64,000 bases of DNA from an uncultured Candidatus Saccharibacteria bacterium (GTDB lineage Bacteria; Patescibacteriota; Saccharimonadia; Saccharimonadales; CAYLGV01): NCBI GenBank assembly GCA_964394925.1, contig CAYMZG010000001.1, positions 67,656-131,655 on the forward strand, in the 5' to 3' direction. This document shows positions 9,904 through 29,929 of the stretch, in pieces; the first letter of the stretch is position 1, and each line of letters begins with the position of its first letter. Position numbers and translations under genes: made by a program. The notes below the pieces were generated by a model. The model made no database searches. It saw only the letters and a program-made list of their open reading frames with translations, and was not told the origin of the DNA.

Positions 9904-10050
9904 CCAACAGTAGTTTCGCTCCTGGTCATCATATGTCCAACAAAGGACATACTTGGCAGACCAGCCAACGCCACTATGATGGCGAGATACCACCTGCTCA
10001 GCAGATGCAACAGCGAACTGTTACTCCTACCGTTTTGTTCCGCAGGGCAG
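9904..10050. repeat. 147-bp direct repeat, promoter-proximal copy
   Basis: Identical by eye to 9598-9744. It begins about 7 nt downstream of the predicted -10 box. Confidence 0.9.
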
Positions 10051-11604: not shown

Positions 11605-12018
11605 GTGAAAGATAAAAAGCTTTTTAAGAAATGGTGGTTCTGGGTAATCGTTGTTGTTGTCCTTGGGGCAATAGGTTCACTTGGTCAAAGCGGCAAGGAC
11701 AGCACAACCAATACAAATACGCAGCAAACCGCCAATAGTACAAACAACACTGGAACATTGCCAAGGCTAAACACAGACGACTATAAGGGCAAGGAGGGTC
11801 TGGTAGTTTACAAGGAGCTAAAAGCTAAGGGCTACAAAGTCGATGCCACCTTTGAGAACCAAGCTCTTACTGACATTAACGGCAAAGCATCTGATTTGTT
11901 TGAGCCACTAGACCCCAACAAAGCTAATGACAAGCAATCTGTTGACTCATTTGTAGTTGGTAGCCTAACGCAAGAAGGAGATAGCATTAGTCTGCTTATT
12001 GCTAAGTCATCAAACTAA
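11605..12018 (+). CDS. Hypothetical membrane-anchored/secreted protein
   Basis: GTG start with AGGAGG 8 nt upstream. N-terminal TM helix (WWFWVIVVVVLGAIG) followed by a Thr/Asn-rich linker. Confidence 0.55.
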   Translation: MKDKKLFKKWWFWVIVVVVLGAIGSLGQSGKDSTTNTNTQQTANSTNNTGTLPRLNTDDYKGKEGLVVYKELKAKGYKVDATFENQALTDINGKASDLFEPLDPNKANDKQSVDSFVVGSLTQEGDSISLLIAKSSN

Positions 12019-12396
12019 GACTGCGCTATACTAGGAATACACATTAAAAATTTAACCGTATTCCATGTAGCAGCTAATCGCGGAGACGACCCGCTTAAAC
12101 TATCGGGGCTGCACACATACATGGAATGTAAGTAAAAACGAGACACGGACTCGGCATAAAACGGGCTTACACGCGGACTAATTAGGGCAATTGCCTTGAG
12201 GAGTCGTTGTGGAGTCCGTTTTTTCACAAATCAACCGGGATATAGGAGTGGTCGCACTCCTAAGTATCCTTGCTACTTACGCAAAGGTAGAAACACAAAC
12301 TAAGCCATTCTTGATTAAGGACGGCATAAAAATCATTTTGTAGACATAAGCCTAAGTGAGCTCTAACTATGTGAGCAAGGATTATATAATCTAGCT

Positions 12397-14049
12397 ATGG
12401 CTGAGCTAAACAATACTCAGAAATTATTAGAACTACTCCAAGCAGGTCAACCAAAGTCACCGGCTGATGTTGACACTGGTACTGTTCGCTATGCGTTGTA
12501 TGCTCGCAAGTCAACCACTAGCGAAGACAGACAGGCGTCTTCTATTGAGGACCAAATTAAAGAGTGTATGGAGAATGTCGTATCTCCTAATAACCTTAAT
12601 ATCGTAAAGGTCTATGACGAAAGCTTCTCAGCAAAAGTAGCTGATACGCGCGTGAAGTTTAATGCAATGATTAGCGAGATTGAGAACGGTCGTATTGACG
12701 GCGTTATTGCATGGCATCCTGATAGGCTCTCACGAAATATGAAAGAGGCTGGTGCAATCATTGACCTTGTAGATAGAGGTCTAATTAAGGACCTACGATT
12801 TAGTACATTTACTTTTGAGAATACCCCTGCTGGCAAAATGCTCCTGGGCATAACTTTCGTCATGGCAAAGCAATACTCAGAGCACCTCTCGGAGTCAGTG
12901 GACCGAGGCAATAAGCGAACGGTCGTGGAAAGAACTGAGTTTATTGGCAAATTCAAGCATGGTTATATTGTAGATATTGACCGCGCATTCCAACCCGACC
13001 CACACAACTTCACCAAGGTTAAAGAGATGTTTGCCATGGCGCTCGCCGGTAAATCACAGAAGGATATCCGACTATGGATAAATGAGCAGGGTTATACGGT
13101 CCAAAAACGCGCAGGTGGTGAATATGTGCAGCACATCTGGGATAAAGATGATGTGTCTAAGCTACTCAGAGACCCTCACTATGCCGGGGTACACAAATGG
13201 GGCAAAAACCTGACCGACCTAGTTGAGGCTTACGACTTTGAGCCGATGATAACCGTTAATGAATTCCTCAGGATAAATAAGATAGATAGCCTGAACTCAT
13301 CAAAGGTATTGGCAATTAGTAGACCAAGGAGCGGTGATATAGGCGCTGACCTGCTTCGTGGTATGGTCTACTGCTCTATGTGTAATAAGACCTTTACCTC
13401 AATGCTTATACCAAAACGAGACAAAGTTACTAAGGAAATCATCCATGCTCGCTACTACTATAAATGCGAGACAGAAGGCTGCTCTATGGTTAATAAATCT
13501 GCTCGCGGTGGGCTGGTCATAGAGGCTGCGCAACAGTTCTTTAGGCAATACCTATTCGTTACTAAGAGCAACTATGCCTATTACGCGAAGGAGGCTGAAA
13601 AAGAGGCTAACCGTAAGGCGACTGAGTTTACTAGCGCCATAGCAAGACTAAAGCTGCTCATTGCCAACAAAGAGAAATCATATGAGGAGGTAAAAGACCT
13701 CATCATAAAGAACCCCGAGCTAAAAGACCACTACGACCTGGCAAAATATGCTAAGGAAATTAAAAAGCTCAAGAAAGACTATAAGGAGGCAGCCGACTCA
13801 CGCGACAAAATTAAGAGCGCTATTCCAAGTTTCGAGGAATACCTCAAACTCCTGGAGTCGACTCCCGTTATTCTGAGTAAAATACGCGACATGAAGACCA
13901 TGGATGCTCTACTGCGTGTTTTCTTCTCTAATTTCACGATTACACCGGGCGAAAAAGACTTTCGTAAGGGGTCAACTGTTACCTATAAACTAAACGAACC
14001 CTGGCAAGGGTTCGTTGATGACGATGATTTCGTTTCTGGTGCCAGATAG
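12397..14049 (+). CDS. Large serine recombinase (rec1)
   Basis: N-terminal resolvase-type catalytic region (YALYARKSTTSEDRQ...DGVIAWHPDRLSRN), a recombinase domain, a zinc ribbon (CSMCNK...YYKCETEGC) and a coiled-coil tail. The last 4 codons and the stop lie in the shared att-like core/IR. Confidence 0.9.
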   Translation: MAELNNTQKLLELLQAGQPKSPADVDTGTVRYALYARKSTTSEDRQASSIEDQIKECMENVVSPNNLNIVKVYDESFSAKVADTRVKFNAMISEIENGRIDGVIAWHPDRLSRNMKEAGAIIDLVDRGLIKDLRFSTFTFENTPAGKMLLGITFVMAKQYSEHLSESVDRGNKRTVVERTEFIGKFKHGYIVDIDRAFQPDPHNFTKVKEMFAMALAGKSQKDIRLWINEQGYTVQKRAGGEYVQHIWDKDDVSKLLRDPHYAGVHKWGKNLTDLVEAYDFEPMITVNEFLRINKIDSLNSSKVLAISRPRSGDIGADLLRGMVYCSMCNKTFTSMLIPKRDKVTKEIIHARYYYKCETEGCSMVNKSARGGLVIEAAQQFFRQYLFVTKSNYAYYAKEAEKEANRKATEFTSAIARLKLLIANKEKSYEEVKDLIIKNPELKDHYDLAKYAKEIKKLKKDYKEAADSRDKIKSAIPSFEEYLKLLESTPVILSKIRDMKTMDALLRVFFSNFTITPGEKDFRKGSTVTYKLNEPWQGFVDDDDFVSGAR

Positions 14050-14260
14050 CCAGCATATTCCAAACAATAAATGCCACTAATGTAGACGTGTACAAGCTTG
14101 AAGCTCTGGCACAGCAATTTAACCTAGCGGGAGATTTGCTCCAAGCATAAAGCTGGAAGGTAAATCACAGCCTGTGCAGGTTCTGTTTAATGACAAGTGC
14201 TTGGTAGCGCTTTGCTGCTGCCAATGTTGCTAGGCAATAACAGTGAGGTATCAGTGAGAA
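14037..14260. repeat. IR-A left arm (224 bp), begins with core TGGTGC
   Basis: Perfect reverse complement of 24003-24226 when compared block by block. Confidence 0.9.
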
Positions 14261-14910
14261 CTTAATTCAGATAGTAGCACCTTGAAGTTAAGCTCACCTA
14301 TATTCTTGGGCGAGATAACAACATTCTGTGCGCTGCTTAGTGTCATATAACTGTGGCTGACTAATTCAGGTATAGCTTGGAGCCAAAGAGCCTTGCTCCT
14401 CATAATTACAATCGTTTTATTTTGCTTTATTGCTTCCTTAACAAGCTCAAAGGAGTAAAGCTGTGAAGGAGTAAAAGCGTTGATATGTTTGTAGTTAATT
14501 GAGTGATAGGGAAAGTATTCAATCATCATAATTTTATCTCTAAGTGCTTCTAGGGACACGCCAGCATTTAATAGTGGTTTAAGTTTTGCGCTCCACCATT
14601 TATAGCCACCCGTTTTTTCTAGCCCGCCGTTAAAGTAATAGAATGGTGATTCAAAGGGGTCATTTAGATTACCCCGACACCCTTCAATAAATGCAGTGAG
14701 TTTCATATTCACGCTTACATCTGAATCAGTAAAACCTGGATTAAGTGCCAAGAACACTACCTTTGCATTATTAAGACCACCTACAAGAGGTTCAGGTAGC
14801 GTATCAAGTCGCAAGCCAATGAAGTTTTTGTGATTCTCAATAACTGCTAAGTCATCATCAAGAATATAAGGTTCTCTAAATGGTAGTGACTTCCAAGGAT
14901 TACTTCGCAT
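14251..14910 (-). CDS. Hypothetical protein, possible uracil-DNA glycosylase superfamily member
   Basis: VVFLALNPGF resembles the MUG/UDG motif-1 (G-x-NPG) and EYFPYHS loosely resembles motif 2. The assignment is weak. The last 10 nt lie inside IR-A. Confidence 0.45.
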   Translation of the reverse strand: MRSNPWKSLPFREPYILDDDLAVIENHKNFIGLRLDTLPEPLVGGLNNAKVVFLALNPGFTDSDVSVNMKLTAFIEGCRGNLNDPFESPFYYFNGGLEKTGGYKWWSAKLKPLLNAGVSLEALRDKIMMIEYFPYHSINYKHINAFTPSQLYSFELVKEAIKQNKTIVIMRSKALWLQAIPELVSHSYMTLSSAQNVVISPKNIGELNFKVLLSELSSH

Positions 14911-14996
14911 ACATATATGTTATTACATTCGTTTAGAAGTAATAGCTTTTACTTTTATTAGTTCCCCTATACCACTACAAAGTCTATAATCAGCTT

Positions 14997-15848
14997 ATGG
15001 GATTATTATCTAAACTATTCAATTCGGACAATCAAAAGGAACCAAAAATTACTGTAACCGTAACTGGCGGAATAGAAGATGACGGTTATAAACCAGCGAA
15101 GCGTGAGTTTAGTGATAATGAAGCTGGTTTACTAGATACTATTAACACTAATGAAACAGTAGTTCCCACGCAAAAACTTCCGTTTTCTAATGTATGTCCA
15201 TACTGTGGAGTAGTCCAATCCAAGCCAGTAGGACGCAAGAAGAACTGTTCAGATTGTAAAAAGCCTATCTATGTAAGAACTACGCAAGACCTTTTTCCTT
15301 CTAGTGCATTAACGGAAGAACAAGTAGCTCACGTTGATTTTTATATGGGAATGAAGAACTACCTAATGGCTACGAAAGATGATTTCAAAAGGCACGAAAA
15401 GCTCTTACAGAAGAAATGGAATACACCAAAAGTTAATACCTACGACGTACTTTGGTCAATGTACAACGACACAGAGCTTTTAAAGCGAAATATAGATAAA
15501 TCCTACACTGGAAAGTGGGCTACTATACAGTTATTACGTAATCATCAGATTGCTACTTTTGAAGCAGCAGAGTATCAAGCAGCAAGAGGTAATGACCCAA
15601 CCCCTTACCTAAAAACAGCACAAGAGTATTCACTAAAAATGGCAAAGTTAAATGAATACGCAAAAGGTCTTACAGTTCAAAGTTATTCTTGTTGCGACGC
15701 CTGTACAAAGTTCCACGATAAGACGTTCACATTAGACTTTATTGAAAAAACACCAGTACTACCTATTAAGACCTGTACTCACCCTTTTAGGGACGGTTCT
15801 AAGTTTGTTCTGTGTACTTGCAGGTACAGTGAATACACCGAATACTAA
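14997..15848 (+). CDS. Hypothetical Cys-rich (zinc-ribbon) protein
   Basis: CPYCG...CSDCKK and CCDAC...CTHPF...CTCRY clusters. No known family recognised. Confidence 0.5.
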   Translation: MGLLSKLFNSDNQKEPKITVTVTGGIEDDGYKPAKREFSDNEAGLLDTINTNETVVPTQKLPFSNVCPYCGVVQSKPVGRKKNCSDCKKPIYVRTTQDLFPSSALTEEQVAHVDFYMGMKNYLMATKDDFKRHEKLLQKKWNTPKVNTYDVLWSMYNDTELLKRNIDKSYTGKWATIQLLRNHQIATFEAAEYQAARGNDPTPYLKTAQEYSLKMAKLNEYAKGLTVQSYSCCDACTKFHDKTFTLDFIEKTPVLPIKTCTHPFRDGSKFVLCTCRYSEYTEY

Positions 15849-15852
15849 CAAG

Positions 15853-17355
15853 TTATTCCTTGCACAGCTCCATTAAGTAATCGTAAATCTTTACCATTGC
15901 TAGCGTGTCTAAGCAACAATAGGTTTTTAGCGACTTGTAAATATGTTGAGCTTCTTCGTTGGTTAAAGCGCCTGTAACAGCTTCATACCAGCGAATAGAA
16001 GCTGATAGTCCATTTTGTATATCAAGCTCTTTATAGCTAAACTCTGGGACTAATACCGGCAATACATATTTTATTGAGCTACTACCCTTAAAATCGTGAT
16101 GTACATAATGCTGTTTACTAAACACGTCCATTAAATCAAATACACGATTATTCATATCTGTAAGATAGTCGGAGTATTCGGGATACGACTTAGCCATTTC
16201 TACATTACGTCCAGTTTCAAAAGATTTATTCCAGACTATTACACTCCCTGTATCGCCAAGGTTTTCCTTCAAACTTCGCAGCAACCCTTCCATTGGAGCT
16301 TTCTCGTTATCGGTCGCTAAGTATTCAAAATGCTCTAGTTCACTATTTTTATCTTTCTTTACGTGTAAAGAATACTGGAAAGGTAATTGCTGAAACGGAG
16401 AGCTACCACTAACAAGCGGTAAGGCAGTAGATACAGTTTCGTAATCCAAAAAGTAAAGTGGAAACTCTAATTCGCTGCATAGCTCTTTAATAGAATCTTT
16501 ATCAATTATAGGCTCTTTTGTTTTCGCTACTTGAACTTGATTCTTTTGTATAACGGAAAGCTTTAAGTCTGCTGGAACGTCTTTCACATCATAAATATCA
16601 CCGTCAATGAGTATTCCTAATTTCTTACCGTTAATACGAGAGATATTAAAAACAGAGTATTCGGGAATGTTTGGATTAAAATAATGAAAAGTCGGACAAT
16701 GACCAGACCTAGTTTTTAATTTACAGCTACAGGATTTAGGCTCGTCACTCCTATTAACAAGCTCCACAGCGTCATTTATCTGCTGTTTGATTGTAGGCAT
16801 AATTTTTTCTACTTTTTCAGTTACATCTATTGTTATTAAAAGTTCTTTAGGGTTGATTGCACCTCTACGAACGTACTCTTTATTCAAGTGAATTACTTGT
16901 ACATTGGAGATGAGATACCCTGATTCTTCAAAAGCTATACGTTGAAAAGTAACATCATATATATGCTCTGGCTTAATTGAGTTTGTAGACTTAACTTCGT
17001 ATAGCGTCCAAGTATCATCAGCATTTTTCTTGATTACGTCAGCCATTGCTAATAAGCCAGTTTCAGTAACTACTGTTGCTTGAAATAGAGTTTTAGCATT
17101 CTCTGCAACTAAGACATCAGTGTCTTCTTTTGCTTTTCTACCTCTTGTAGTAATTAGTGTAGCTTCTGGGAATAATTCACGGGCTTTTGCTTCAACCTCG
17201 TTACCTTGTTCTAGGCGACGGTTAATAGCTTCTTCTTCATCAGTAGGGACTAGTTCTGGTTTATGTTTCCAAAGCCAAAGGTAACTAGGGCAACACTGAT
17301 ATTTCAAGAAATCTGACTTTGATAAATATGTTTTTGTTTTTGTGGCGGTTGTCAT
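15853..17355 (-). CDS. DUF2779 domain protein (predicted PD-(D/E)xK/Cas4-like nuclease N-terminus)
   Basis: The N-terminus YLSKSDFLKYQCCPSYLWLW is characteristic of DUF2779, and there is a Cys cluster (CSCKLKTRSGHCP). The start overlaps the upstream stop (ATGA). Confidence 0.7.
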   Translation of the reverse strand: MTTATKTKTYLSKSDFLKYQCCPSYLWLWKHKPELVPTDEEEAINRRLEQGNEVEAKARELFPEATLITTRGRKAKEDTDVLVAENAKTLFQATVVTETGLLAMADVIKKNADDTWTLYEVKSTNSIKPEHIYDVTFQRIAFEESGYLISNVQVIHLNKEYVRRGAINPKELLITIDVTEKVEKIMPTIKQQINDAVELVNRSDEPKSCSCKLKTRSGHCPTFHYFNPNIPEYSVFNISRINGKKLGILIDGDIYDVKDVPADLKLSVIQKNQVQVAKTKEPIIDKDSIKELCSELEFPLYFLDYETVSTALPLVSGSSPFQQLPFQYSLHVKKDKNSELEHFEYLATDNEKAPMEGLLRSLKENLGDTGSVIVWNKSFETGRNVEMAKSYPEYSDYLTDMNNRVFDLMDVFSKQHYVHHDFKGSSSIKYVLPVLVPEFSYKELDIQNGLSASIRWYEAVTGALTNEEAQHIYKSLKTYCCLDTLAMVKIYDYLMELCKE

Positions 17356-17744
17356 AGTTCTACATTTCTTATTCGGTCAAGACGATATTTATAACTGTAA
17401 CCCTTCGTACCTGGTATATGCAAATAAGTGTTATCAAATGTGAAGCTATAAAATACCCTAAAAGTTTTATCATCTTTGTAATAGATTTTTGCAGGTTGGT
17501 TTGATACAGAGCGATATTTCAAATACTCCAAGATGTATTCCATAGATACTTCTTGTTCAAACTTTACTCGTTTAACTACAGGTTTAGTTGCAGACCTAAC
17601 AGTCTTCTGTGTATTCCATTCACCGCACGAAGTACATCTGCCTGACCAAGTTTCAGTCACAGCGTCGCAGTTGCTGCACTGATACCAATTTTTATTAGAA
17701 GTAGATTTTTCTTGCCGACCTATTTGCTGCCTAAACGAGTGCAA
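17352..17744 (-). CDS. Zinc-ribbon protein; the coding frame very likely extends upstream to 17882 or beyond (see slippery site)
   Basis: CSNC-x10-CTSC ribbon. The track start is a TTG, but the same frame stays open upstream to 17939 and encodes a second ribbon (ICSVC-x17-CYLC) with no ATG/GTG/TTG start. Confidence 0.6.
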   Translation of the reverse strand: MHSFRQQIGRQEKSTSNKNWYQCSNCDAVTETWSGRCTSCGEWNTQKTVRSATKPVVKRVKFEQEVSMEYILEYLKYRSVSNQPAKIYYKDDKTFRVFYSFTFDNTYLHIPGTKGYSYKYRLDRIRNVEL

Positions 17745-17878
17745 CGTTTTGCCAGTTACTTTTTCGTAACATAGATAGCACTCTGGTCGTCCTTTGAAAG
17801 GAAATAGCCACGACCATTTTACTTCCTCACAAACGCTACAAATCCGCTTATCGCCTTTTTGTACTGATTCAATAACGG

Positions 17879-20800
17879 CTAAGAAACCGTCAATAGCCCC
17901 TTGCGTATATTCTTTTTTTTTACGACGTTGGCTAATAAGCCGTCAAGTTGCTTTATGGGTTCTTTTCCAAGGTTAAACTTGTTCAGTCTTAGAAACTTAT
18001 AGCCATAGCCTTCAAGTACTTTTTGCCTATAAACATCATCTGCTTTTAGATAACTTTCGTAGTTACTTTCATTTACTTCATCTAGGTTTATGAAATGTTC
18101 ATTAAATCCGTCATATTCAATAACTATTTTTTGTTTACCGAATGTAAGCAAGAAGTCTACTTTATACATTGGGTGGCTGTAATTTTTATCTAGCGACTTC
18201 AAGTATTCGCCTAGCGGGAACTGTGGAACTAGTTCTAGTTGGTCTTTGTTCTTTTGGTAGAACTCGGTCTGATAGAAGTAGTTCTGTACTAGAGGTTCCA
18301 TCGCAGACTTCTCGTCAGTACCACCGATTTGATGAGTAGTGGTGTTAAGAGCATTTTCATAATAAAGTAGCGCAGTTTTAACTTCGCCCCAATACTCATT
18401 GACAGGCTTACTAAGTACAAAATGTATTGTTTCTTTTGCTCGGCTGAAACCAACATTTAGACGTTGCTCACGTGTCCCGAACTCCTTCCCAGTCTTAACT
18501 GATTCTTCCATTGAAATTGGGAAAATATATCGGTGTGTATTCTCATCACTTTTTTCAACCATACTGTACAAAAGATAATCTCGTTCTTCGCCTTGGCAGG
18601 TATCAAAGGTCATCACCTTTAGGGAGTGTTCGTGTAGCCAGTCAGAAATCCCCGAGTCATTTAGCAGGTTGTTAATAAACGTGGCTTGCTCTCTGTGTGG
18701 TGTAATAACGCCTAATGAGCCAGCATAATCCTTGTTTTTGAGTGCTGTAAATTGCTCTAGGATATAGTTAGCTTCCGCAGAGTTTGTCAGCCTGTATTGT
18801 TCGGTGACACCTTCTGTCTCAACTTGCGTAAACTTGATAACTTCACTAATAGGTAATGAACGAGCTTTCATACACTGTAAGTTATTGTCATAGAAATACT
18901 TGTTTGAATAACCAATGATTTCTGGGTAACAACGAAAATGCTTTTTCAGCATTGTTTGATAATTTGTAATGAATCTACAGAAGTCCAAAATTGAGCGTTT
19001 AACATTAAAGTTTTCATCTACCCTTGCAGAGTAAACTGAACTGTAGTCTTTAGCCTGTGCGTCAATTGAAGCCCTTAAAGTTTTCAGTAGGTTACTGCGA
19101 TACTTGCTGTTAGTAAGTACGCTAGCGTTTCCAGCCTTTACGTTACTAAACTGCTTCTCATCACCAAGTACCAAGATTTTTTTGCCACGAATCAAAGCTG
19201 GTAGAGCTTGGGCAATACTAACCTGGGAAGCTTCGTCAATTATTACTAAATCAAACAAGCCTTTTTCTAAAGGAATATACGTTGCGTAATCTCTAATGCC
19301 AGCTAGTATGCAGGGGAACGCTTGCTTTAAGTCGCTGAAAAGAACTTTAGGAAACTTCTGCTTAGATTTGAGCATAGATTTCAGCGTTCTAATATCAGCA
19401 GCGTGGTGGTCTACATAGTCAATAATACGAGTATCTAAAATGTTAGCCATTTTAGCTGCATTAAGTAGGTACAGGCTTTCGGAACTATCTGCAAAGTTAT
19501 CTGTAGCTATAACTTCAAACTTATCGGCAAGTTTCTGTGCTTCTTTCTTATCATTCAGGTAATCAGCTAGTTCGCTTTCACTCATATCTATGAATCGCTT
19601 ATCAACTGCGTCTACAGATTCAGTGCCTTCTGTAAGGTTTATGGCTTGTGCAACATCAGGGTAGCTGAAAATGAATTGCTCTACTGTGCTTCTATGATTT
19701 AGAGCAGTTTCTAGTTCTTCAAGCTCACCAGCAAGTGATTTTAGTTTTTTGATTTCTTCATCAGGGCTTGATAACAATACATTTACGCTGGATTTAATAA
19801 TTGTAAGCACCTGTTCGTTAGCGTGAGCGATTTCCTGCAAATTACGAGCATTGCTTAATGCGGTAATGGCACTGTTAATGTCTTTGAGTTGCGATAGCTT
19901 GTAGCTCTTAATGAAGTCATTTTCATTTGGTTTACTTAGTAGATTTAATACTTTTTTAATGTTTTCTACTTCATCGCCTGGCAGGAGCAATAGCTCTAGG
20001 ACAGGTTTCCACGAACTTTCATCTAGTCCTTGTTGCTGCAATTTACCCTTTAGAAAGTTCAGTGTGTCTACGAACCCTACCAGCTCTGTAACGTGTTTTT
20101 CGGGCGAAGATAGGTTTAGATACGGAAGTTGAGTTTTAAGCTCCCTTACAAGGGCTTCTATTGAAGATTTCTTGCCAGAATAGCCAAGAAGCCTAGACCG
20201 TAGAGATTGTAGCTTTGAAATAAAGTCATTTAGTGAAGTATGTAATTCGCTTAGGCTTACTTCACATTTCAAAGATTGCTCAATAATATCTTTTGAGTTG
20301 TAGATATTAGGGGCAAACATTCTGACCGCATTTACTGTGTCCCTAGAGCGATAGAAATTATCTTCTGCTGCAAATACGTCAGCTATAGTACTAGCTTTGC
20401 TTAATGACTTAGTTCCGCTATATGATGATTCCTTCAAATAAGCTATACATTCATCTAGGTTTTCATTTATATCATCTACTTGCTGTTTTAGCTGGTTTTG
20501 ATTCTCAACACTTTGTTTCTTGTACCCATTGATAAACGCAGCGAAGTCTTTACTCAATGAATGCCGTGATTTTGCGTATGCGTCAGTAGCTAGAATAATT
20601 TGCTCTAAGTTTGATAAAGCTGGTGAATTAGCGAATGGAATCAAATACAAAACTTTGCTTTGTTTCAAGGCTAATACTGATTTATGTACGTCCTTGAAAG
20701 ATTCAATTAGTTCATCATCAACGGCACTAACCCAATCAATGCCTGTGTACTTTTCTTCTGACTTAATAACTGATTTAACATCAGATAAACTAATCTTTTC

Positions 20801-22549
20801 GCCAACACCAATTACCGTTTCTAGTGATTCTGTGGCTTCGTCCTTTGCTTCTTTTTCAGCAGTTTTAAAATCATTAACTCTACTTCTATATGCTCTAAGA
20901 TGTTCACGCACTTTTTCTAGTGCTTGTCCTTCAATAACCTTAGCTAGACCTCGGCTAGATTTTCCTAATCGCAGAATAGGATTTTGGAAGTTTTTGTCGT
21001 GCCTAATAGTACTTAATGTGTCAGTAATCTTGTCTTGAACTACATCAAGAGCTTCTTCTTTGTCTGAAAGCACAAGGACAGATTGACCTTCCAGGAGTGC
21101 CTTACAAACAATCGCAGTAATTGTATGGCTTTTACCAGTTCCTGGTGGACCTTCAAGTATTGCAACTTTACAGTCGTCTTTTTGCAGGGCTAGTAAAACT
21201 TGTTTCTGCTCTTCATTTAAGGCTATAGGGCTATCAACAATCAGCTTTTCTAAGATTGTTTTTTCTTCCCATTCTTGTGCAACGTCTTCAATAAAGTTTT
21301 GTGGATTTTCAGTAACGAAGCTGTCAATCAGTTCTGCAAAGGCTTCCGTAAGTTCGCCTTGGTCTTCAATAATTTCTTCATAATCATTTATTAAGGATTC
21401 GTCAGACTTATCAAAGAGAAATAGCTGTAAACGATTAGATATGCGTGTAACCATATTATTAGCAATTTGACTTGACGTTTCTTTAATGTCTACGGGCTTA
21501 GTTAGTCCCAATACGTCCCGAACATCATCTACAATTTTTTGTAACTGTGGCAATAAATCTTTTTTATTTTCAAAATAGATAATTCGGTCAAACGTACCAC
21601 CAACACTTTCATTACTTGAAGTAGCGACATTGTTTTGCTGAACTACAAACTCAATGGCTTTGATATTCACAAATACTCGGCTATCAAAACTGATTGAGAG
21701 TTTAGAATCCTCTTGTTCCACAGAGATAGGTACATAGAATAATGGAAATGAGAAGTTATTAACGCCAATCTCGCCGAAATATACATATAACTCTGTTTTA
21801 TCAAGCATATCTTTATTTCGGTTGAGCTGTAGTATTTCAGCATATGCGTCTGACGCACTAAACTCTTTGAAAAACTCCTTTAGAGCAGCCTTTACTGCAA
21901 GTGAGTCAAAAATACCTGCCAAAGCTTTAGAAAGGGACTTAGAATCCTGTGTAGCAGCAAAGAACTCCTCTAGGACTGTAGCTATACTATCTTCTGCAAG
22001 TGCATAGACCTTTGCAGTAGCGTCCGTTTCAAGCTGGTATAAGCTACTTTCAGCACTCCATCCAGCAGCTTCTAGTGATTGTTCAATGTCATTCAGGAGC
22101 GGGGCGATAACCTTTGTATCAAACTTATTCTTTATAACTTCTAGAGAAGTTTCAAAATAGTTATCATAATCCTTTTGATTATCTAGCCTAAGTTGATTTA
22201 TTTCCTTCGTGATTTCTTTTAGGGTGTCAATAATTTCATCATCGGATAGCTGGTCAATTCGCTGTTCAAGTAAAGAAACTAATCTATCAGAAATCTTAGT
22301 GGTGTATTTACCAAGTTCTACATCAAAACTTTCTTTTGCAAAACCACTTATGAAGTTTTTATAAAGTTCTCTATAGAGGGTCGGGTACTTATCAAGATAA
22401 AGCCCTGTAGACAAACCTTTATTTACCCTAGTTGTAAGGTTACGCTTTGGCTGTGTGCGTTTTTTGAAATCTGTTTCCAAAAAAGCCATAAAGTACTTGG
22501 CTACTTCGGTAACAAAATCTTTACTAATTACAGGGGGCTTCGTGTCCAT
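17879..22549 (-). CDS. Giant SF1 (Upf1/DNA2-like, AAA_11/AAA_12-type) helicase with C-terminal DUF559/Vsr-like endonuclease domain
   Basis: Walker A ILEGPPGTGKSHTI, Walker B LVIIDEASQ, motifs TFDTCQGEERDY and NVGFSRAKE. The C-terminal YKVDFLLTFGKQKIVIEYDGFNEHF is typical of DUF559/REase folds. About 600 aa are inserted between Walker A and B. Confidence 0.8.
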   Translation of the reverse strand: MDTKPPVISKDFVTEVAKYFMAFLETDFKKRTQPKRNLTTRVNKGLSTGLYLDKYPTLYRELYKNFISGFAKESFDVELGKYTTKISDRLVSLLEQRIDQLSDDEIIDTLKEITKEINQLRLDNQKDYDNYFETSLEVIKNKFDTKVIAPLLNDIEQSLEAAGWSAESSLYQLETDATAKVYALAEDSIATVLEEFFAATQDSKSLSKALAGIFDSLAVKAALKEFFKEFSASDAYAEILQLNRNKDMLDKTELYVYFGEIGVNNFSFPLFYVPISVEQEDSKLSISFDSRVFVNIKAIEFVVQQNNVATSSNESVGGTFDRIIYFENKKDLLPQLQKIVDDVRDVLGLTKPVDIKETSSQIANNMVTRISNRLQLFLFDKSDESLINDYEEIIEDQGELTEAFAELIDSFVTENPQNFIEDVAQEWEEKTILEKLIVDSPIALNEEQKQVLLALQKDDCKVAILEGPPGTGKSHTITAIVCKALLEGQSVLVLSDKEEALDVVQDKITDTLSTIRHDKNFQNPILRLGKSSRGLAKVIEGQALEKVREHLRAYRSRVNDFKTAEKEAKDEATESLETVIGVGEKISLSDVKSVIKSEEKYTGIDWVSAVDDELIESFKDVHKSVLALKQSKVLYLIPFANSPALSNLEQIILATDAYAKSRHSLSKDFAAFINGYKKQSVENQNQLKQQVDDINENLDECIAYLKESSYSGTKSLSKASTIADVFAAEDNFYRSRDTVNAVRMFAPNIYNSKDIIEQSLKCEVSLSELHTSLNDFISKLQSLRSRLLGYSGKKSSIEALVRELKTQLPYLNLSSPEKHVTELVGFVDTLNFLKGKLQQQGLDESSWKPVLELLLLPGDEVENIKKVLNLLSKPNENDFIKSYKLSQLKDINSAITALSNARNLQEIAHANEQVLTIIKSSVNVLLSSPDEEIKKLKSLAGELEELETALNHRSTVEQFIFSYPDVAQAINLTEGTESVDAVDKRFIDMSESELADYLNDKKEAQKLADKFEVIATDNFADSSESLYLLNAAKMANILDTRIIDYVDHHAADIRTLKSMLKSKQKFPKVLFSDLKQAFPCILAGIRDYATYIPLEKGLFDLVIIDEASQVSIAQALPALIRGKKILVLGDEKQFSNVKAGNASVLTNSKYRSNLLKTLRASIDAQAKDYSSVYSARVDENFNVKRSILDFCRFITNYQTMLKKHFRCYPEIIGYSNKYFYDNNLQCMKARSLPISEVIKFTQVETEGVTEQYRLTNSAEANYILEQFTALKNKDYAGSLGVITPHREQATFINNLLNDSGISDWLHEHSLKVMTFDTCQGEERDYLLYSMVEKSDENTHRYIFPISMEESVKTGKEFGTREQRLNVGFSRAKETIHFVLSKPVNEYWGEVKTALLYYENALNTTTHQIGGTDEKSAMEPLVQNYFYQTEFYQKNKDQLELVPQFPLGEYLKSLDKNYSHPMYKVDFLLTFGKQKIVIEYDGFNEHFINLDEVNESNYESYLKADDVYRQKVLEGYGYKFLRLNKFNLGKEPIKQLDGLLANVVKKKNIRKGLLTVS
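17912..17921 (-). promoter_or_regulatory. Slippery run A9G containing the A_AAA_AAG heptamer in the zero frame
   Basis: The minus strand reads GTA AAA AAA AAG AAT. The -1 frame (or a +1A transcript) continues without a stop into the zinc-ribbon ORF. Confidence 0.5.
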
Positions 22550-23049
22550 ATTTTGTGAGCTTGCTTACGAATAACTATACAACATTTACTCCTGTAAATC
22601 CTGCTTAAGTTAAAAATGGCAGGAAATACTTATTTAAGCCCTCTACAGCCCTATATGAAATGTCCTAAACTATAGATGTGGAAGAACTGCGTAAAAAAAT
22701 TTGAGGAGCATTAAAGAATATGCCACCCATTGACTGGTCGGACACTAGACCGCCAACTGAACACGCAGTTCACGCTATGATTAGGAACTTACACGCTGCT
22801 GCTGGCACAGACGCAGACAACACTCTAAAACGCAAAGAACAGTGAGATAACAGTGAGCAAATAGTGCGATAGTGCCTGACGCTGGTTGAGCTTTAAGGCT
22901 ACAGATTTTTCTGACAATGCCGCAAAACCCATTTGTGTTATTTTATATATACCTTGTACTAGGTACATACCTTTTACTTATACAGACCTAGTACTATACA
23001 AATCTAGTACTATACATAACGTAATAGTGCCATTTCATTACGTGAACTG

Positions 23050-23391
23050 TCACGAATCCTCTTGCAGGGCGTAATGTTTATCATTATGGGTACGGTTAAT
23101 AATTACACCAGAGTAACTTTCAACCTCGTCAATGATACTGTCTAACAAGAACCCGTAGAAAGATGAATGCTTGCCATACTCAAACTTATCTTTCCAGCGT
23201 TCACTGGATTTTTCTTTATAGCTCCCAGGATACAGGCCGTATTCACCCTTATGTGCGTGGAATAGTACAAACTTGAAATCCAAGTATAGGTCAATTGGCA
23301 TTATATGTACCTTAACTCTGTATGTGCCTTCGTCTAAACTTGTAGGGGCACTATATACTTCTACTTGTTCAAGATAGAGTTCTACCTGCAT
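23050..23391 (-). CDS. Hypothetical protein (113 aa)
   Basis: ORF overlaps the upstream gene by 10 nt (operonic). No recognisable motif. Confidence 0.45.
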   Translation of the reverse strand: MQVELYLEQVEVYSAPTSLDEGTYRVKVHIMPIDLYLDFKFVLFHAHKGEYGLYPGSYKEKSSERWKDKFEYGKHSSFYGFLLDSIIDEVESYSGVIINRTHNDKHYALQEDS

Positions 23392-23798
23392 AGCTCAACT
23401 CCATTTACCTCGTGCCATACAGAATGAAGTATGCAAACCCAGTCTTCATCACCACGAGCTTGAGCGCACATCACTTTGTCTAGCTGCGCTTCCCGCAATA
23501 TGTCATTCAATAGTTTCTTGCGCCGTTGATTAAGCTTAAACTTCCTGCGCAACCAGCCTGGCTTTACTTGGCCGTATTGCATAAAAAGCCAGCGTATCCA
23601 TTTGAACTGCTCGGTGCTTAGCTTAATCTCTATTTTGTTTATGACTCTACGCTGTAAAGTCGGGTCTAAAACCGCCGTCTGGGTGTCAGGAGCATAATTT
23701 GTACGCTTCGCATATTTGTCTAGCTTTTTGCTGCGACTTTCTACCGTAATGTTTTTTTGCAGGTTTTTGTGTCGGGACTCATCATATTGAGTTTTCAT
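23382..23798 (-). CDS. Hypothetical basic protein (138 aa)
   Basis: ORF downstream of a strong promoter. Lys/Arg-rich; possibly DNA-binding or a recombination directionality factor, which is speculative. Confidence 0.45.
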   Translation of the reverse strand: MKTQYDESRHKNLQKNITVESRSKKLDKYAKRTNYAPDTQTAVLDPTLQRRVINKIEIKLSTEQFKWIRWLFMQYGQVKPGWLRRKFKLNQRRKKLLNDILREAQLDKVMCAQARGDEDWVCILHSVWHEVNGVELCR

Positions 23799-23923
23799 TT
23801 AACCCTACCTTTATATAGAGCGAACAGACCAGTCGGCATACTGGCTCGCTTTTATTTAGGAGTAACGAAGCACACCTACGCTCCGTTAAACGCTGTTTGT
23901 AAGAGTCACTTTCACTTACCTAC

Positions 23924-23952
23924 AGTATACGCTAATGCTTATGGAAAGTCAA
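23924..23952 (-). promoter_or_regulatory. Sigma70-like promoter (TTGACT-17-TATACT)
   Basis: The minus strand reads TTGACTttccataagcattagcgTATACT. It lies just inside the segment bounded by IR-A, upstream of the 138-aa gene. Confidence 0.55.
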
Positions 23953-24002
23953 GCCGATTTATGTTCTAATAAACCTTTATAATAAAAAGTCGGCTTACAG
24001 TT

Positions 24003-24226
24003 TTCTCACTGATACCTCACTGTTATTGCCTAGCAACATTGGCAGCAGCAAAGCGCTACCAAGCACTTGTCATTAAACAGAACCTGCACAGGCTGTGATT
24101 TACCTTCCAGCTTTATGCTTGGAGCAAATCTCCCGCTAGGTTAAATTGCTGTGCCAGAGCTTCAAGCTTGTACACGTCTACATTAGTGGCATTTATTGTT
24201 TGGAATATGCTGGCTATCTGGCACCA
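24003..24226. repeat. IR-A right arm (224 bp)
   Basis: Perfect reverse complement of 14037-14260. It contains the last 37 codons of rec2. Confidence 0.9.
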
Positions 24227-25744
24227 AACTGCATTTTTAGCGCCTTCGGGCGCTTTTCTGTTTAATTGGGTAAGCTCGTTATAGGGGTAATTTACGCTAA
24301 ATGTGAGCTTTTTGCCGTTAAGTTGCAAGTTAGAAAGTAGGAAGCCAAGAAGCTTAGATTTTTGGGCTTCATCAGCACACTTGAACAGTTCTTCGGCTCT
24401 ATTTGCTAGGTCTAACAGATACGAACAAGTTAGTAACAAGTCTTTATTGCCCCTAGTTAGAATATCTAGCTTGTCATTTAGGCGTTCTTGACGCTTCGTA
24501 AGAGTTTTGACGACCTCGTCATACTTATCTGGTTCAATGCGGTCATCTACCAAGCGTTCCCACCACATATTGAGCTTTTTATCTACTGTGTCATACTCTT
24601 GTCTTGCTTCGGCTACAGACACTGCGTAGTGCTTTTGCTGGCTTTTGTGATTAGCTCTTAATTCTTGCGCAACTTTTTTAACTATGTAGTCTGGAAGCGT
24701 AATCTCTTTGATAACAGCTTCAATAGACCCCATAACCAAGGATTCTGCTGTATTAGGATTCTTGCAAGTAGGGTTTGCACAATTTAGGTATACCCATTGC
24801 TTTGACCTGAATGGCGATACTGCTCGTCCGCATACTCCACAACTCACAACGTCTTTAAGAGTGAAGTCCATACTGTCCCATTTACGTTTCATAGACTTGC
24901 GCTCATCTCTAACCAACTGACACCTATTAAACAAAGACCTGTCTATCAAAGGCTTGTACTTGTGTTTGTACTCCTTGCCCTTATGAACCATAGTGCCGTA
25001 GTAGAACTTATTGCTGATAATCTTTTCTACGCCAGCCTTAGTAAGTTCGGCCTTACCTGTTTTACGGCTTGTATAGCCAGCTTTGAGGAGTTCTTTAGCG
25101 ATAACACTGTACGGCATACCCAGCGCACGTAACTCAAAGGCTTTTACAATGTAATGGGAGCGTTCTGTGTCCTCGTGAATGTCCTTTATTGGCTTAGATA
25201 ACACTTCTGTTTGTATTAGCACATTCTTATAACCTACAGGCGCACGATGAACCCAAACACCGTCAGCTAATAGCTGCTCAAACCTGCGCTTAACATTGTC
25301 CCTTATGGAGCTTGAGTAGTAGCCAGCAAGCGCAATACCTATATCTAAGCGGAACAAATCAGGTGCAGGGGAATCCTTATGAATGAATAAGTTATCGCTA
25401 GGAAAGTGCATTTCAATCTTGCCCTGCCTAAACAACTTTGTCAGTGCAGCTCGTTCATTGGAAGTTGATTCACGGCTGAATCTGTCAATTTTGTCAAACA
25501 CAACAAAAGTTTGTGCATTGGCACTTTGTAATGGCTCAATTACCAACTCATTAAAGGTCTTGCGGTTTTCTTTGTAGGCTGTTTCGTCAAACTCCACATA
25601 CCTAAAGTCTTGCTTTTCAACCCAACGGCAGCGTTTAGCGTACTCATATAGGCGTTTTTTCTGGGCGGGTAGTGCTTTACGTTGCTCTACGTCCGACACC
25701 CTTGCTACTAATAATGCTTTTGGTTCATTGTGTGCTGTTTTCAT
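24113..25744 (-). CDS. Large serine recombinase (rec2)
   Basis: Catalytic region ALLVARVSDVEQR...FDKIDRFSRE, a zinc ribbon (CGVCGR...YLNCANPTC) and a coiled coil. The gene reads through the TGGTGC core at 24226-24221. Confidence 0.9.
   Translation of the reverse strand: MKTAHNEPKALLVARVSDVEQRKALPAQKKRLYEYAKRCRWVEKQDFRYVEFDETAYKENRKTFNELVIEPLQSANAQTFVVFDKIDRFSRESTSNERAALTKLFRQGKIEMHFPSDNLFIHKDSPAPDLFRLDIGIALAGYYSSSIRDNVKRRFEQLLADGVWVHRAPVGYKNVLIQTEVLSKPIKDIHEDTERSHYIVKAFELRALGMPYSVIAKELLKAGYTSRKTGKAELTKAGVEKIISNKFYYGTMVHKGKEYKHKYKPLIDRSLFNRCQLVRDERKSMKRKWDSMDFTLKDVVSCGVCGRAVSPFRSKQWVYLNCANPTCKNPNTAESLVMGSIEAVIKEITLPDYIVKKVAQELRANHKSQQKHYAVSVAEARQEYDTVDKKLNMWWERLVDDRIEPDKYDEVVKTLTKRQERLNDKLDILTRGNKDLLLTCSYLLDLANRAEELFKCADEAQKSKLLGFLLSNLQLNGKKLTFSVNYPYNELTQLNRKAPEGAKNAVWCQIASIFQTINATNVDVYKLEALAQQFNLAGDLLQA
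24221..24378. repeat. IR-B left arm (158 bp) inside rec2
   Basis: Perfect reverse complement of 27985-28142. It overlaps IR-A only in the 6-bp core. Confidence 0.9.
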
Positions 25745-25826
25745 CTTATAGTCCTTTACAAACTAACTATATGATGACCTCCGATACTAAAGCGACCGGA
25801 TAATTTGCGTATTCTAAACTTAAGTT

Positions 25827-26288
25827 TTAGTCAAACAGGCTAAGCTCTGCCATATCGGGTGGCTCTAATTGGCTAGCAGATTGTTCAAGGCGTTCTCTTG
25901 TGAGTACTGCGTCTTTGTCATTTTCTTTCTTATTGCGAGCGTCCACTCTACGCCATAACTCCTCAAACGGCACGTCAAGGTAGCGCAACTCTATTCTTAG
26001 ACCTAAAGAGTGAGCTTCAAGACGTAACTTATCTCGCTCCTCACGTCCCCAGAATCCGTTTTCCAGTATTACATTGCTACCTGACCTTGCTTGGTCTAAT
26101 GCCTTTTGCCATTGTTCAGCTTCAATTTCCGCTCTAGCTTTCTCATCAAAAAAACTAATACCGCGTTCATACATTTCTTGGTCTGGACTCATCACAGTGG
26201 CTTGCAGTTCCACGGCCAATTTTTTGGCAAGTGTGCTTTTACCTGCACCTGGCAATCCACAAAGCAAAATAAGTGTTCCTTGTTTCAT
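25827..26288 (-). CDS. P-loop kinase/ATPase (AAA_33-like)
   Basis: Walker A GLPGAGKSTLAKKL. Small size typical of a phosphotransferase. The start overlaps the ABC-F stop (ATGA). Confidence 0.65.
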   Translation of the reverse strand: MKQGTLILLCGLPGAGKSTLAKKLAVELQATVMSPDQEMYERGISFFDEKARAEIEAEQWQKALDQARSGSNVILENGFWGREERDKLRLEAHSLGLRIELRYLDVPFEELWRRVDARNKKENDKDAVLTRERLEQSASQLEPPDMAELSLFD

Positions 26289-27760
26289 TTGATTTCCTTA
26301 TCTAGATTAATTGTACGATTTATGCCAACTTGACGTAAGAAGTATTTGTCGTGTGAAGCAATTAACATTGCGCCTTGATAGTCCTGCAATGCAGCTTCAA
26401 TCTTTTCTCTGGTAGGCAAGTCTAAGTGATTAGTTGGCTCATCAAGAATCAAAAGATTATTTTGCGATAGTAATAGTTTTGCAAAACTAAGCTTAGCTTG
26501 CTGCCCTCGTGACAGCTCACCTGGCTTCTTTCTAAGGTCTTTTTCGTCTAGCCCTAGACTTCTGGCTTCACGGTAAATAGCTGTGGAACTTGACCCTGTA
26601 GTATCAAGGTTTTCAAAATTACTCAGGCTATAATCCAGTCCATTTACATCTTGGGAAAAGTAGCCGTACTTTATATTTTGTCCTAGCTCAATGTTCCCGC
26701 TATCTGGTGCAAGCAATCCAGCAGCGATTTTTAGTAGCGTAGTTTTGCCACTGCCATTAGTGCCTTGAATATGCAGCCTTTCCGTACCTCGTATTTCAAA
26801 GTCAGTATATGTAAGGGTTCGTTTATAGTATGCTTTCCTGACATTTTCAGCCCTTACGATCAGCTTAGTTGGCGGAACACTCCCAGCAAGTGTAACTTTG
26901 TAGTTTTTGCTGGACTCTGGCTTTTCAACTTCCTCTAGTTGCTCAAGCCGACCTTGCAGCATTTTGGCATTTTGACCGAACTTAACAGTTAAACGATTTT
27001 TGAAATAGTCCCGTTGTGCCTTGTCATTATCGGGGCGTTTTATGTTCTTGTGGATATGCTGGCTCTTATCGCTCTGAGCTTTAATAGCTTTTTCTAACCG
27101 CTTACGTTCCTCAATGTTACCTTCGTATTTTTCAAGCTCGGTTTGATATTCAGTTTCCTTTTGCTGTTTGTAAAAATCGTAATCACCGCCGTATTGCTTG
27201 AGCTTGCCTTTATGCAGTTCGGCAATACTTGTGGCAACTTTGTTAATGAAGGTTCTGTCGTGGCTGACGAGTACAATACCGCCCTTAAAGTTCTTGACGA
27301 ATTGCTCTAACCACAACAGACCGTCAACATCCAGATTGTTGGTAGGCTCATCAAGCAGTAGCACAGTAGGTTCTGGGTCGCTCGCAAGTACTTTTGCAAG
27401 TGCCAGGCGTGTTTTCTGACCACCACTTAAACTAGAAATGGCTCTGGTTTTTGGGACGCTTTCAAGCCCGACTAGACTTAATGCGTAGTCTATTTTCCAG
27501 TCCTCATACTTATCAAAGCTATCTTGAATAGTACCCACTGCTTCGGCTTCCTGTGGGACATAACCAATGACTTCGTGATGTAAGGCAACACTGCCACTGT
27601 CTGGCTTTAGCTGACCAAGAATTATTTTAAGTAAGGTTGTCTTGCCAGCACCATTTTCGCCAATAAGAGCAATGACCTCGCCAGGGTTAACCGACAGGCT
27701 TACATCTTCAAGTACAGGCTTATCTCTGTACGATTTGTGTATGTGTTGCAGGGCAAACAT
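26285..27760 (-). CDS. ABC-F family ATPase (two ABC domains, no TMD); possible ribosome-protection/ARE type
   Basis: Two Walker A motifs (GENGAGKTT, GTNGSGKTT), two signature motifs (LSGGQKTRL, LSRGQQAKL) and a charged inter-domain linker. Confidence 0.85.
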   Translation of the reverse strand: MFALQHIHKSYRDKPVLEDVSLSVNPGEVIALIGENGAGKTTLLKIILGQLKPDSGSVALHHEVIGYVPQEAEAVGTIQDSFDKYEDWKIDYALSLVGLESVPKTRAISSLSGGQKTRLALAKVLASDPEPTVLLLDEPTNNLDVDGLLWLEQFVKNFKGGIVLVSHDRTFINKVATSIAELHKGKLKQYGGDYDFYKQQKETEYQTELEKYEGNIEERKRLEKAIKAQSDKSQHIHKNIKRPDNDKAQRDYFKNRLTVKFGQNAKMLQGRLEQLEEVEKPESSKNYKVTLAGSVPPTKLIVRAENVRKAYYKRTLTYTDFEIRGTERLHIQGTNGSGKTTLLKIAAGLLAPDSGNIELGQNIKYGYFSQDVNGLDYSLSNFENLDTTGSSSTAIYREARSLGLDEKDLRKKPGELSRGQQAKLSFAKLLLSQNNLLILDEPTNHLDLPTREKIEAALQDYQGAMLIASHDKYFLRQVGINRTINLDKEIK

Positions 27761-27772
27761 ATAAACTCCTAA

Positions 27773-27972
27773 CTAAAAAACCGAGCGTGTTTGACGTATA
27801 TCGCCACACAACTGCTCGGTTTCTCAAAAGGGTTTAACTGATAGAATTACAATCAAATAGCAAAGCTACACAAAGCTGTGTGAACGACTTTAGCGGTTGA
27901 TTGTTACTATCATAAGTATGTTTAACTCCTTTAGTACATATAAACATTAACACTATAATCTCAATGTGTCAA
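27773..27972 (-). promoter_or_regulatory. ABC-F leader: promoter, 7-codon leader ORF and terminator-type attenuator
   Basis: TTGACA-17-TAATGT (27972-27944). AAGGAG followed by ATG ATA GTA ACA ATC AAC CGC TAA (27913-27890). Hairpin AACCGAGC...GCTCGGTT plus T6 (27822-27773), then AGGAG and the ABC-F ATG. Confidence 0.55.
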
Positions 27973-27984
27973 ATACTTTTATAC

Positions 27985-28142
27985 GTGCTGATGAAGCCCA
28001 AAAATCTAAGCTTCTTGGCTTCCTACTTTCTAACTTGCAACTTAACGGCAAAAAGCTCACATTTAGCGTAAATTACCCCTATAACGAGCTTACCCAATTA
28101 AACAGAAAAGCGCCCGAAGGCGCTAAAAATGCAGTTTGGTGC
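27985..28142 (+). pseudogene. Duplicated rec2 3' fragment (IR-B right arm) fused to the tRNA-Gly 3' end
   Basis: Encodes ADEAQKSKLLGF...NAVWC, identical to rec2 residues, and ends in the core. The track ORF 27966-28148 is this fragment. Confidence 0.8.
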
Positions 28143-28212: not shown

Positions 28213-28347
28213 TTAACAGGTGAGGATTATAGCTATTTTGACCCGATGAATCAAGTTTACATTTGTCCAGTATTAGGAATAGTATGCGATTCAAAGAAGC
28301 AATAGGATAGCATCCTCTATTACGTTATAATAGTGGCGGCATAAAAT

Positions 28348-28422: not shown

Positions 28423-28423
28423 T

Positions 28424-29928: not shown

Positions 29929-29929
29929 C

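Follow-up and report, generated by a model that had tools for sequence, protein, structure and literature searches.

The window considered here, a stretch of 64,000 nucleotides (nt), was taken from an uncultured Candidatus Saccharibacteria bacterium (assembly GCA_964394925.1, contig CAYMZG010000001.1, positions 67,656 to 131,655). Its minus strand carries a gene for a superfamily 1 (SF1) helicase of 1556 amino acids (aa), which displayed the domains AAA_11, AAA_12 and AAA_30 and ended with a domain showing sub-threshold similarity to the REase_MTES_1575/DUF559-like type. Close to the end of this gene lies a run of nine A's (A9), behind which the -1 frame encodes a zinc-ribbon and WYL-like extension. 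A preliminary description of the window had proposed that recoding at this run fuses both parts, and the junction was compared here with its orthologs. The features are gathered in Table 1.

The open reading frame (ORF) of the helicase ended with ...GCC AAC GTC GTA AAA AAA AAG AAT ATA CGC AAG GGG CTA TTG ACG GTT TCT TAG, the stop being placed 11 codons past the A9 run. The -1 frame opened 8 codons 5' of the run, was read as ...KKKEYTQGAIDGFLAVIESVQKGDKRICSVCEEVKWSWLFPFKGRPECYLCYEKVTGKT and remained without a stop into a 130-aa ORF starting with TTG. It encoded KKKEYTQGAIDGF...CSVC...CYLC..., directly followed by this listed ORF. The earliest ATG, GTG or TTG on offer in this frame was the TTG at position 17744, which is located 56 codons past the run and beyond the complete first ribbon; the 130-aa ORF is an artefact of ORF calling. 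Messengers with runs of A9, A10, A8 and A11 were predicted to yield products of 1556, 1732, 1552 and 1553 aa, respectively, the second of these being the computed length of the fusion. What the preliminary description had stated about the helicase end, the A9 run, the heptamer A_AAA_AAG and the -1 frame was correct throughout on the minus strand, and two of its figures were adjusted: the ribbon lying upstream of the TTG was indeed present, with a CxxC-x16-CxxC spacing instead of x17, and the helicase-ribbon fusion is predicted to measure 1732 instead of ~1720 aa. The 64 kb contained a single A9/T9 run where 2.8 were expected from shuffled sequences. This count is not beyond chance and the case therefore rests on conservation among orthologs.

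Locus scans, in which the helicase C-terminus alone served as bait, covered one genome per species and JGI metagenomes and delivered 106 further loci (designated by L numbers). In each of the four orthologous loci gathered first, which came from Logan, ENA and JGI, a 1556-aa helicase was accompanied by the sequence GTA AAA AAA AAG, by a TAG after 11 codons and by a ribbon read in the -1 frame. Unique junction sequences were counted in a census that used the conserved LRxNKFN motif as its anchor; 48 of them contained at least nine A's, starting exactly 71-72 nt past this anchor. Forty of these displayed A9 and an extension in the -1 frame; four displayed A10, generated by substitution of the next base and still with a -1 extension. 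Three others (L082, L088 and L009) displayed A9 in frame with the extension and differed by a single non-A base beside the run, which was extra in L082 and L088 and missing in L009. The last one, L044, was near-identical at its junction to L043 and had its extension interrupted by a nonsense mutation (TTA->TAA when read in that frame), which suggests that its long isoform was recently inactivated. Two junctions were encountered beyond this census: L016, with A9 and a -1 extension, and L008 (positions 5309-5480 of that locus), in which GTT preceded an A10 run and the ribbon (CEIC...CKAC) lay in the -1 frame. Altogether, 50 run-bearing junctions were gathered and all, except the three in frame, need either one additional A or a -1 ribosomal shift to reach the extension. 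They originated from Patescibacteria, Atribacterota, Spirochaetia, Omnitrophota, Margulisiibacteriota, Gammaproteobacteria and others.

The base following the ninth A was G in 24, C in 17 and A in four of the 45 out-of-frame loci. The codon providing the first A was GTA (41 loci), CTA (three) or TTA (one), its third position being A in 45 out of 45 against a background frequency of 43 % at such third positions elsewhere in these genes. The T found at this wobble position in L008 was offset by a 3' extension of the run to A10, and the in-frame alleles L009, L082 and L088 kept exactly A9 in another codon phase. A9 runs are avoided in these helicase genes except at the junction, because elsewhere in the same genes only one out of 54 KKK tripeptides was written as A9 despite AAA making up 74 % of the lysine codons. 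The junction conserves nine or more consecutive A's and not the dnaX heptamer: the dnaX-type A_AAA_AAG emphasized in the preliminary description is in phase, but the variable base behind the run shows that it is not what has been conserved.

Ahead of the run, the -1 frame was devoid of start codons in all 45 out-of-frame loci, and in 37 the first possible start lay past the first CxxC, which was encountered in orthologs at a constant distance of 24 codons past the run. Pairwise divergence over the 150 nt past the run was 0.46/0.36/0.59 for -1-frame codon positions 1/2/3, and this stretch already displayed the same pattern within its initial 30 nt, where it is shared with the helicase tail; for the zero frame ahead of the run, the values were 0.39/0.14/0.56. 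Zero-frame tails of orthologs comprised 0-16 codons and were unconserved. Database homologs of the small ORF had ragged called starts, several of them inside ribbon 1, and the most complete homolog contained the whole of ribbon 1. Coding in the -1 frame begins with the first codon past the run, and independent initiation of this frame is impossible, as had been suspected for the stretch encoding the upstream ribbon. The extension is under purifying selection.

In forty-four unique loci devoid of the run, a single frame encompassed helicase, linker helix and zinc ribbon. These loci were found in Lysobacter, Xanthomonadaceae, Pseudomonas and many metagenomic lineages. The same in-frame architecture was found separately in a plasmid protein of Priestia megaterium (WP_323874070), which is annotated as a single AAA-domain protein. 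The in-frame run-bearing loci L082 and L088 read ...IVKKKLYNHD..., the protein that their sister L106 could make only after a shift. Because helicase and ribbon form a single in-frame protein where the run is lacking, the helicase-ribbon fusion is taken as the functional product. A protein search across the junction for fused ORFs (possible transcript-derived A10 assemblies) gathered only run-less in-frame relatives and no such transcript-derived ORF from the clade of the window. The comparison of orthologs advised in the preliminary description thus returned both of the outcomes it had envisaged, some orthologs having kept the slippery site and others being fused in frame, and supports its view that the helicase would be made, at least in part, as a zinc-ribbon fusion by recoding at the A run.

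Two clades were separated in a neighbour-joining tree built from the helicase part. In one, to which the window belongs, the ribbons are of FP[FY]K type and every member displayed the run, the in-frame L009 being nested inside. In the other, the ribbons are of G-R-x-C type and the members were in frame without a run, apart from a nested subclade composed of L101, L106 and L110 (out of frame) and L082 and L088 (in frame). The run was therefore gained, or lost, more than once at the same linker position. Separately, the Gracilibacteria metagenome-assembled genome L024 displayed no A9 at its junction (~5230-5340) and only A6; its lineage reads UGA as glycine and the helicase frame contains in-frame TGA codons, hence it was mis-scored by translation table 11.

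Table 1. Features of the helicase junction and of its surroundings (window positions)
Feature	Position	Strand	Remark
Zero-frame helicase ORF, short isoform, 1556 aa	22549..17879	minus	
Candidate nascent-RNA hairpin GAC-GGCU-UAUU-AGCC-AAC-GUC	17924..17944	minus	ends 2 nt 5' of the run
A9 run (T9 on the plus strand), proposed slippage site	17921..17913	minus	
Heptamer A_AAA_AAG in the helicase frame, possible -1 ribosomal shift site	17918..17912	minus	
Zero-frame tail NIRKGLLTVS and TAG stop	17879..17911	minus	
Trans-frame (-1) extension after ...VVKKK, 186 codons and stop	17352..17912	minus	
Zinc ribbon 1, CSVC-x16-CYLC	17769..17840	minus	conserved core of the extension
130-aa TTG ORF, 3' two-thirds of the extension	17352..17744	minus	mechanical ORF listing
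Zinc ribbon 2, CSNC-x10-CTSC	17625..17678	minus	RadA/LapB rubredoxin type (PF18073)
WYL-like beta-barrel domain, C-terminus of the extension	17355..17525	minus	hhalign against Pfam-WYL-positive orthologous ends
DUF2779/Cas4-like nuclease gene, 500 aa	15853..17355	minus	ATG overlaps the extension stop (ATGA)

The end of the extension was assigned by profile comparison. Pfam WYL (PF13280) was recognized in the extensions of L013, L014, L101 and L009 with 30-49 bits (gathering cutoff 21.8), and the window-type end was aligned by hhalign to such Pfam-WYL-positive ends with a probability of 95.9 % and an E value of 6e-9; compared directly with PF13280, the window extension gave nothing at E <= 1. 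An AlphaFold2 model of the extension displayed a mean predicted local distance difference test score (pLDDT) of 68 and reached confidence nowhere but in ribbon 2 and the C-terminal barrel, the latter part consisting of a helix and five strands (pLDDT 75-93). A Foldseek search with this model delivered no match at E <= 0.001; the PDB entries listed, all non-significant, were LapB, the WYL proteins CapW, DriD and BrxR, and Hfq-like barrels (E > 0.04 for CapW, DriD, BrxR and Hfq). The assignment of a WYL fold therefore rests mainly on the profile comparison. According to their PDB entry descriptions, WYL proteins in solved structures are bound to single-stranded DNA (ssDNA), which suggests by analogy that the helicase-nuclease could, in its long form, sense a ligand or DNA. 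The appended module might be a sensing or targeting unit for nucleic acid, probably ssDNA, and this would be why two isoforms are needed.

Programmed recoding at the conserved A9 run is proposed here, probably by transcriptional slippage (programmed transcriptional realignment). RNA polymerase would copy the T9 template stretch 11 codons ahead of the helicase stop, and the all-rA:dT hybrid would realign by one position in some transcripts, giving rise to A10 messengers. Faithful A9 messengers would yield the 1556-aa helicase with its short unconserved tail. On A10 messengers, ordinary decoding would proceed via ...VVKKK into the genomic -1 frame and yield an isoform of 1732 aa, whose extra 186 residues would form a linker helix, the CxxC-x16-CxxC ribbon, the RadA/LapB-type ribbon and the WYL-like barrel. 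In vivo, nine consecutive A or T are enough to make bacterial RNA polymerase slip efficiently, and a nine-nt A/T run is used by dnaX of Thermus thermophilus (Atkins 2016, PMC5009743). In E. coli cassettes, the frame was changed at a rate of 40 % by A9, against 10 % by A7 and 63 % by A11 (Antonov 2013, PMC3711429). The junction displays what is expected of such a site, namely an A run of at least 8-9 nt placed exactly at the junction and conserved in length regardless of phase and flanks. Placing the shift at the level of transcription, and not of translation, is an inference, as is its efficiency. Transcriptional slippage, mentioned in passing in the preliminary description, is thus favoured over the dnaX-type ribosomal frameshifting to which that description gave more weight.

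Stimulatory elements were looked for on both sides of the run. Over the 60 nt downstream of the site in 48 loci, no conserved 3' structure was found (mean z 0.05). The window's only downstream hairpin, at positions 17873-17892 of the minus strand, was an 8-base-pair (bp) hairpin, UGACGGUU-UCUU-AGCCGUUA, which encloses the helicase UAG 20 nt 3' of the run; its regional z was -0.82 and it was unconserved in orthologs. No Rfam family, frameshift elements included, was matched by the window at E <= 10. Direct reading of the stacked junctions uncovered no conserved Shine-Dalgarno (SD)-like element (GGAGG/AGGGAG-like) ~10 nt 5' of the site, the window displaying GCCAACGUCGU at the equivalent position. 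Upstream of the run, a candidate nascent-RNA hairpin (Table 1) covaried within the eight-member clade of the window but was not general. In this clade, 84 % of the cells paired, a value reached by none of 500 shuffles (slid controls, 9-45 %), and four pairs changed on both sides, also across amino-acid replacements (GLLA, DLLV). In another clade, characterized by RLQNL, a 6-bp hairpin, CAGAUU-gcaa-AAUCUG, with a GCAA loop was likewise placed 2 nt 5' of the run. As a general stimulator, such a 5' hairpin is unproven.

Several observations weigh against slippage or weaken its case. The 5' hairpin was only weakly enriched (mean z -0.68 against -0.24 in run-less controls; Mann-Whitney p = 0.06) and that of the RLQNL clade can be explained by the R-L-x-N-L codons, which are common to run-less controls. 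The loci are phylogenetically related, so that their counts overstate the number of independent observations. Moreover, every phase-2 A9 run holds an A_AAA_AAN heptamer in the correct phase, and ribosomal -1 frameshifting could yield an identical product. Programmed -1 frameshifting on A_AAA_AAG (A_AAA_AAN in orthologs), in which P- and A-site tRNA-Lys would slip back by one base on faithful transcripts to give the same 1732-aa fusion, is a possible main route, if an unlikely one. In its favour, the window and the 45 phase-2 loci all display the heptamer in the correct phase; A_AA.A_AA.G shifts with high efficiency in E. coli, and shifting has been proven for A_AAA_AAC of IS1, for which no stimulator is known. 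However, the Z base of the heptamer varied (G 24, C 17, A 4), whereas the wobble A preceding the first lysine codon, which the heptamer does not need, was invariant (45/45), a T at this position being offset by A10 in L008; and A9 was retained in in-frame variants. Since run length was conserved and the heptamer was not, and since neither an SD-like element nor a conserved 3' stem-loop, pseudoknot (mean z 0.05) or Rfam element was found, slippage is favoured over dnaX-type frameshifting. The spread over many phyla, presumably with differing sets of tRNA-Lys, would also favour a mechanism independent of any particular set. Ribosomal frameshifting may nevertheless contribute, and both mechanisms may act together.

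The remaining explanations are far less probable. The tract might be a contingency locus, in which slippage at replication switches the extension ON (A10) or OFF (A9) in subpopulations; poly-A tracts are slippery for DNA polymerase too (Antonov 2013, PMC3711429) and the locus sits in a mobile, defence-like island. This is very unlikely, as phase-variable tracts are normally length-polymorphic between isolates, while a change in run length put none of the 50 junctions in frame, the five A10 alleles arose by substitution of the next base and were still out of frame, and the three in-frame alleles kept A9 and differed by a non-A base outside it. Slightly less credible still is a separate gene for the zinc-ribbon/WYL protein, expressed from a non-canonical start or by reinitiation after termination at the helicase stop: gene callers do annotate ORFs of 113-161 aa and the window displays a weak purine stretch, AAGGGG, past the run, but 37 out of 45 loci had no ATG, GTG or TTG ahead of the first CxxC, called starts were ragged and often inside the ribbon, coding periodicity in the -1 frame began directly past the run and ahead of the helicase stop, and relatives encode one continuous protein. 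The preliminary description had also allowed that the assembly gained or lost one A. Homopolymers are error-prone and a single A9 is unsurprising in 64 kb; a sequencing or assembly error in the window, or a pseudogene, is nonetheless hardly conceivable. It was refuted by the comparison of orthologs, in which the arrangement recurred with A9 in ~50 independent assemblies (ENA, JGI, Logan, GenBank) from differing projects and technologies, with an extension under purifying selection.

The run was associated with WYL-type ends. Among the run-bearing extensions, 39 of 47 were matched by hidden Markov models built from such ends, as against none of the 44 run-less fusions (Fisher's exact 4e-18, uncorrected for phylogeny). 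The run thus accompanies long modular extensions (extra ribbons, winged-helix modules, WYL) and is absent where the helicase ends with a bare ribbon. The helicase was exactly 1556 aa long in L001-L003, and its C-terminal 450 aa displayed 81-92 % identity to the window across L001-L003, L031 and L032, as compared with extensions whose identity to the window fell to 42-49 % in the L003 group. The second ribbon of RadA type was present in the window, L001 and L002 and absent from the L003 group. In its evolution, the extension behaves as a swappable module.

A rather doubtful possibility goes further and regards A9 as an evolved device setting the ratio of isoforms, which would arise whenever the helicase family gains a WYL-type sensor module. 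The run would have appeared at least twice at the same linker, in the FPxK clade and in the subclade nested among run-less fusions, and would have been kept in either polarity, the zero frame giving the short or the long product. If so, the cell would need a fixed mix of sensor-bearing and sensor-less helicase, as for tau and gamma of dnaX, both forms perhaps sharing one assembly, and the slippage rate could respond to nucleotide pools or infection.

The core of the helicase resembled the anti-phage proteins ProA, Hhe and MkoA and the candidate PDC-S37, far under the family cutoffs. No full-length match above a curated cutoff was obtained for these named anti-phage helicases (ProA, Hhe, MkoA/Mokosh, PDC-S37): ProA scored 148 bits (cutoff 1500), Hhe scored 92 (cutoff 2000), and PADLOC matches were partial and confined to the helicase core. 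The downstream gene of DUF2779/Cas4-like type was also present in L001 and lacking in most orthologous loci. In L001 (414-2678) and L111 (322-1937; Priestia plasmid NZ_CP065336), the helicase gene lay directly 3' of a gene for a Y-family polymerase (IMS/'damage repair protein'), which was accompanied by a YolD-like partner in Priestia and by a 99-aa ORF and a SRAP gene in L001. These neighbours hint at a context of DNA-damage tolerance rather than, or besides, phage defence.

The helicase cassette is surrounded by a low-GC island (window positions 12000-28000; 37-42 % GC against 45-49 % in the flanks), bounded by two large serine recombinase genes (12397-14049, plus strand; 24113-25744, minus strand) and adjoined by a tRNA-Gly/Cys/Leu cluster (28137-30014). 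It is probably an integrative mobile element. Between the second recombinase gene and the tRNA cluster, a double ABC ATPase of ABC-F type (491 aa) was followed by an overlapping 153-aa AAA_33/zeta-toxin-like kinase (25827-27760, minus strand). Just outside the island, an ORF of 604 aa (8196-10010, minus strand) displayed an RVT_1 reverse-transcriptase domain of group II intron-, retron- or DRT-like type. Searches for near-identical DNA in plasmids gave no match, nor did a comparison of the stretch 30000-42000 with E. coli genomes. Protein-level searches in phages and in IMG/VR viral contigs gave no match either, so that there was no evidence for a phage gene.

To our knowledge, few chromosomal non-transposon genes of bacteria use a conserved homopolymer run to yield two proteins. 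This family would add at least 50 distinct alleles across many phyla, bacteria of the candidate phyla radiation included, and comes with its own natural controls (in-frame run-bearing alleles, run-less fusions, A9G and A9C alleles), which make slippage and frameshifting directly distinguishable by experiment. Current annotation displays a 1556-aa helicase and a spurious small ORF with an arbitrary start, and thereby misses the ribbon-WYL module as a part of the helicase. A helicase-nuclease appears to be fitted only sub-stoichiometrically with a probable ssDNA-sensing module. The combination of a helicase with WYL is itself known from PIF1 of T. elfii. A WYL-like barrel, putatively of Sm/SH3 type, would be shared with the WYL modules of PIF1-WYL, DriD, CapW, BrxR and PafBC; unlike in these, the barrel would here be attached conditionally, through recoding and with zinc ribbons ahead of it, the window copy falling under the Pfam threshold.

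Full-text literature searches and the GeneTack paper with its supplements, as far as these were accessible, returned no prior description of recoding in this helicase family; in the accessible text and two supplement files of that paper, there was no helicase, AAA_11 or AAA_12 term. The poly-A clusters of GeneTack (magnesium chelatase, A7-A11) and spa13/mxiE of Shigella nevertheless resemble the present case by a conserved poly-A/T tract joining two frames of a cellular gene, and in the GeneTack poly-A cassettes efficiency rises with the length of the run (Antonov 2013, PMC3711429). With the OrfA-OrfB fusions of insertion sequences (IS), which use A-rich heptamers in IS3/IS1 and slippage at A/T runs in IS630 and other elements, it shares an A-rich site and a short product extended into a start-less trans-frame ORF, and the CAGAUU-gcaa-AAUCUG hairpin of some orthologs resembles the stimulatory hairpin GCGGGC-gcaa-GCCCGC of the Roseiflexus IS630 element. 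In contrast to the IS systems, the gene encodes a helicase instead of a transposase, the hairpin is restricted to some orthologs and can be attributed in part to codon constraints, and the run alone is long enough that a stimulator should be unneeded. The E. coli dnaX cassette (A_AAA_AAG with an upstream SD and a 3' stem-loop) has its in-frame heptamer in common with the window, but here the Z base varies, an SD-like element, a conserved 3' stem-loop and an Rfam match are lacking, and the shifted product is the longer one.

The closest parallel is dnaX of T. thermophilus, which likewise carries a nine-nt homopolymer at a fixed site of a cellular, non-IS gene and derives from it two isoforms differing C-terminally, with no elaborate stimulator. 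There, however, the gene encodes a clamp-loader subunit and the zero frame gives the long product, opposite to the window with its SF1 helicase, for which slippage is predicted from sequence; the in-frame alleles L009, L082 and L088 share the polarity of Thermus. Recoding in this helicase family appears not to have been described before and would be of the kind displayed by dnaX of Thermus, OrfAB of insertion sequences and spa13 of Shigella.

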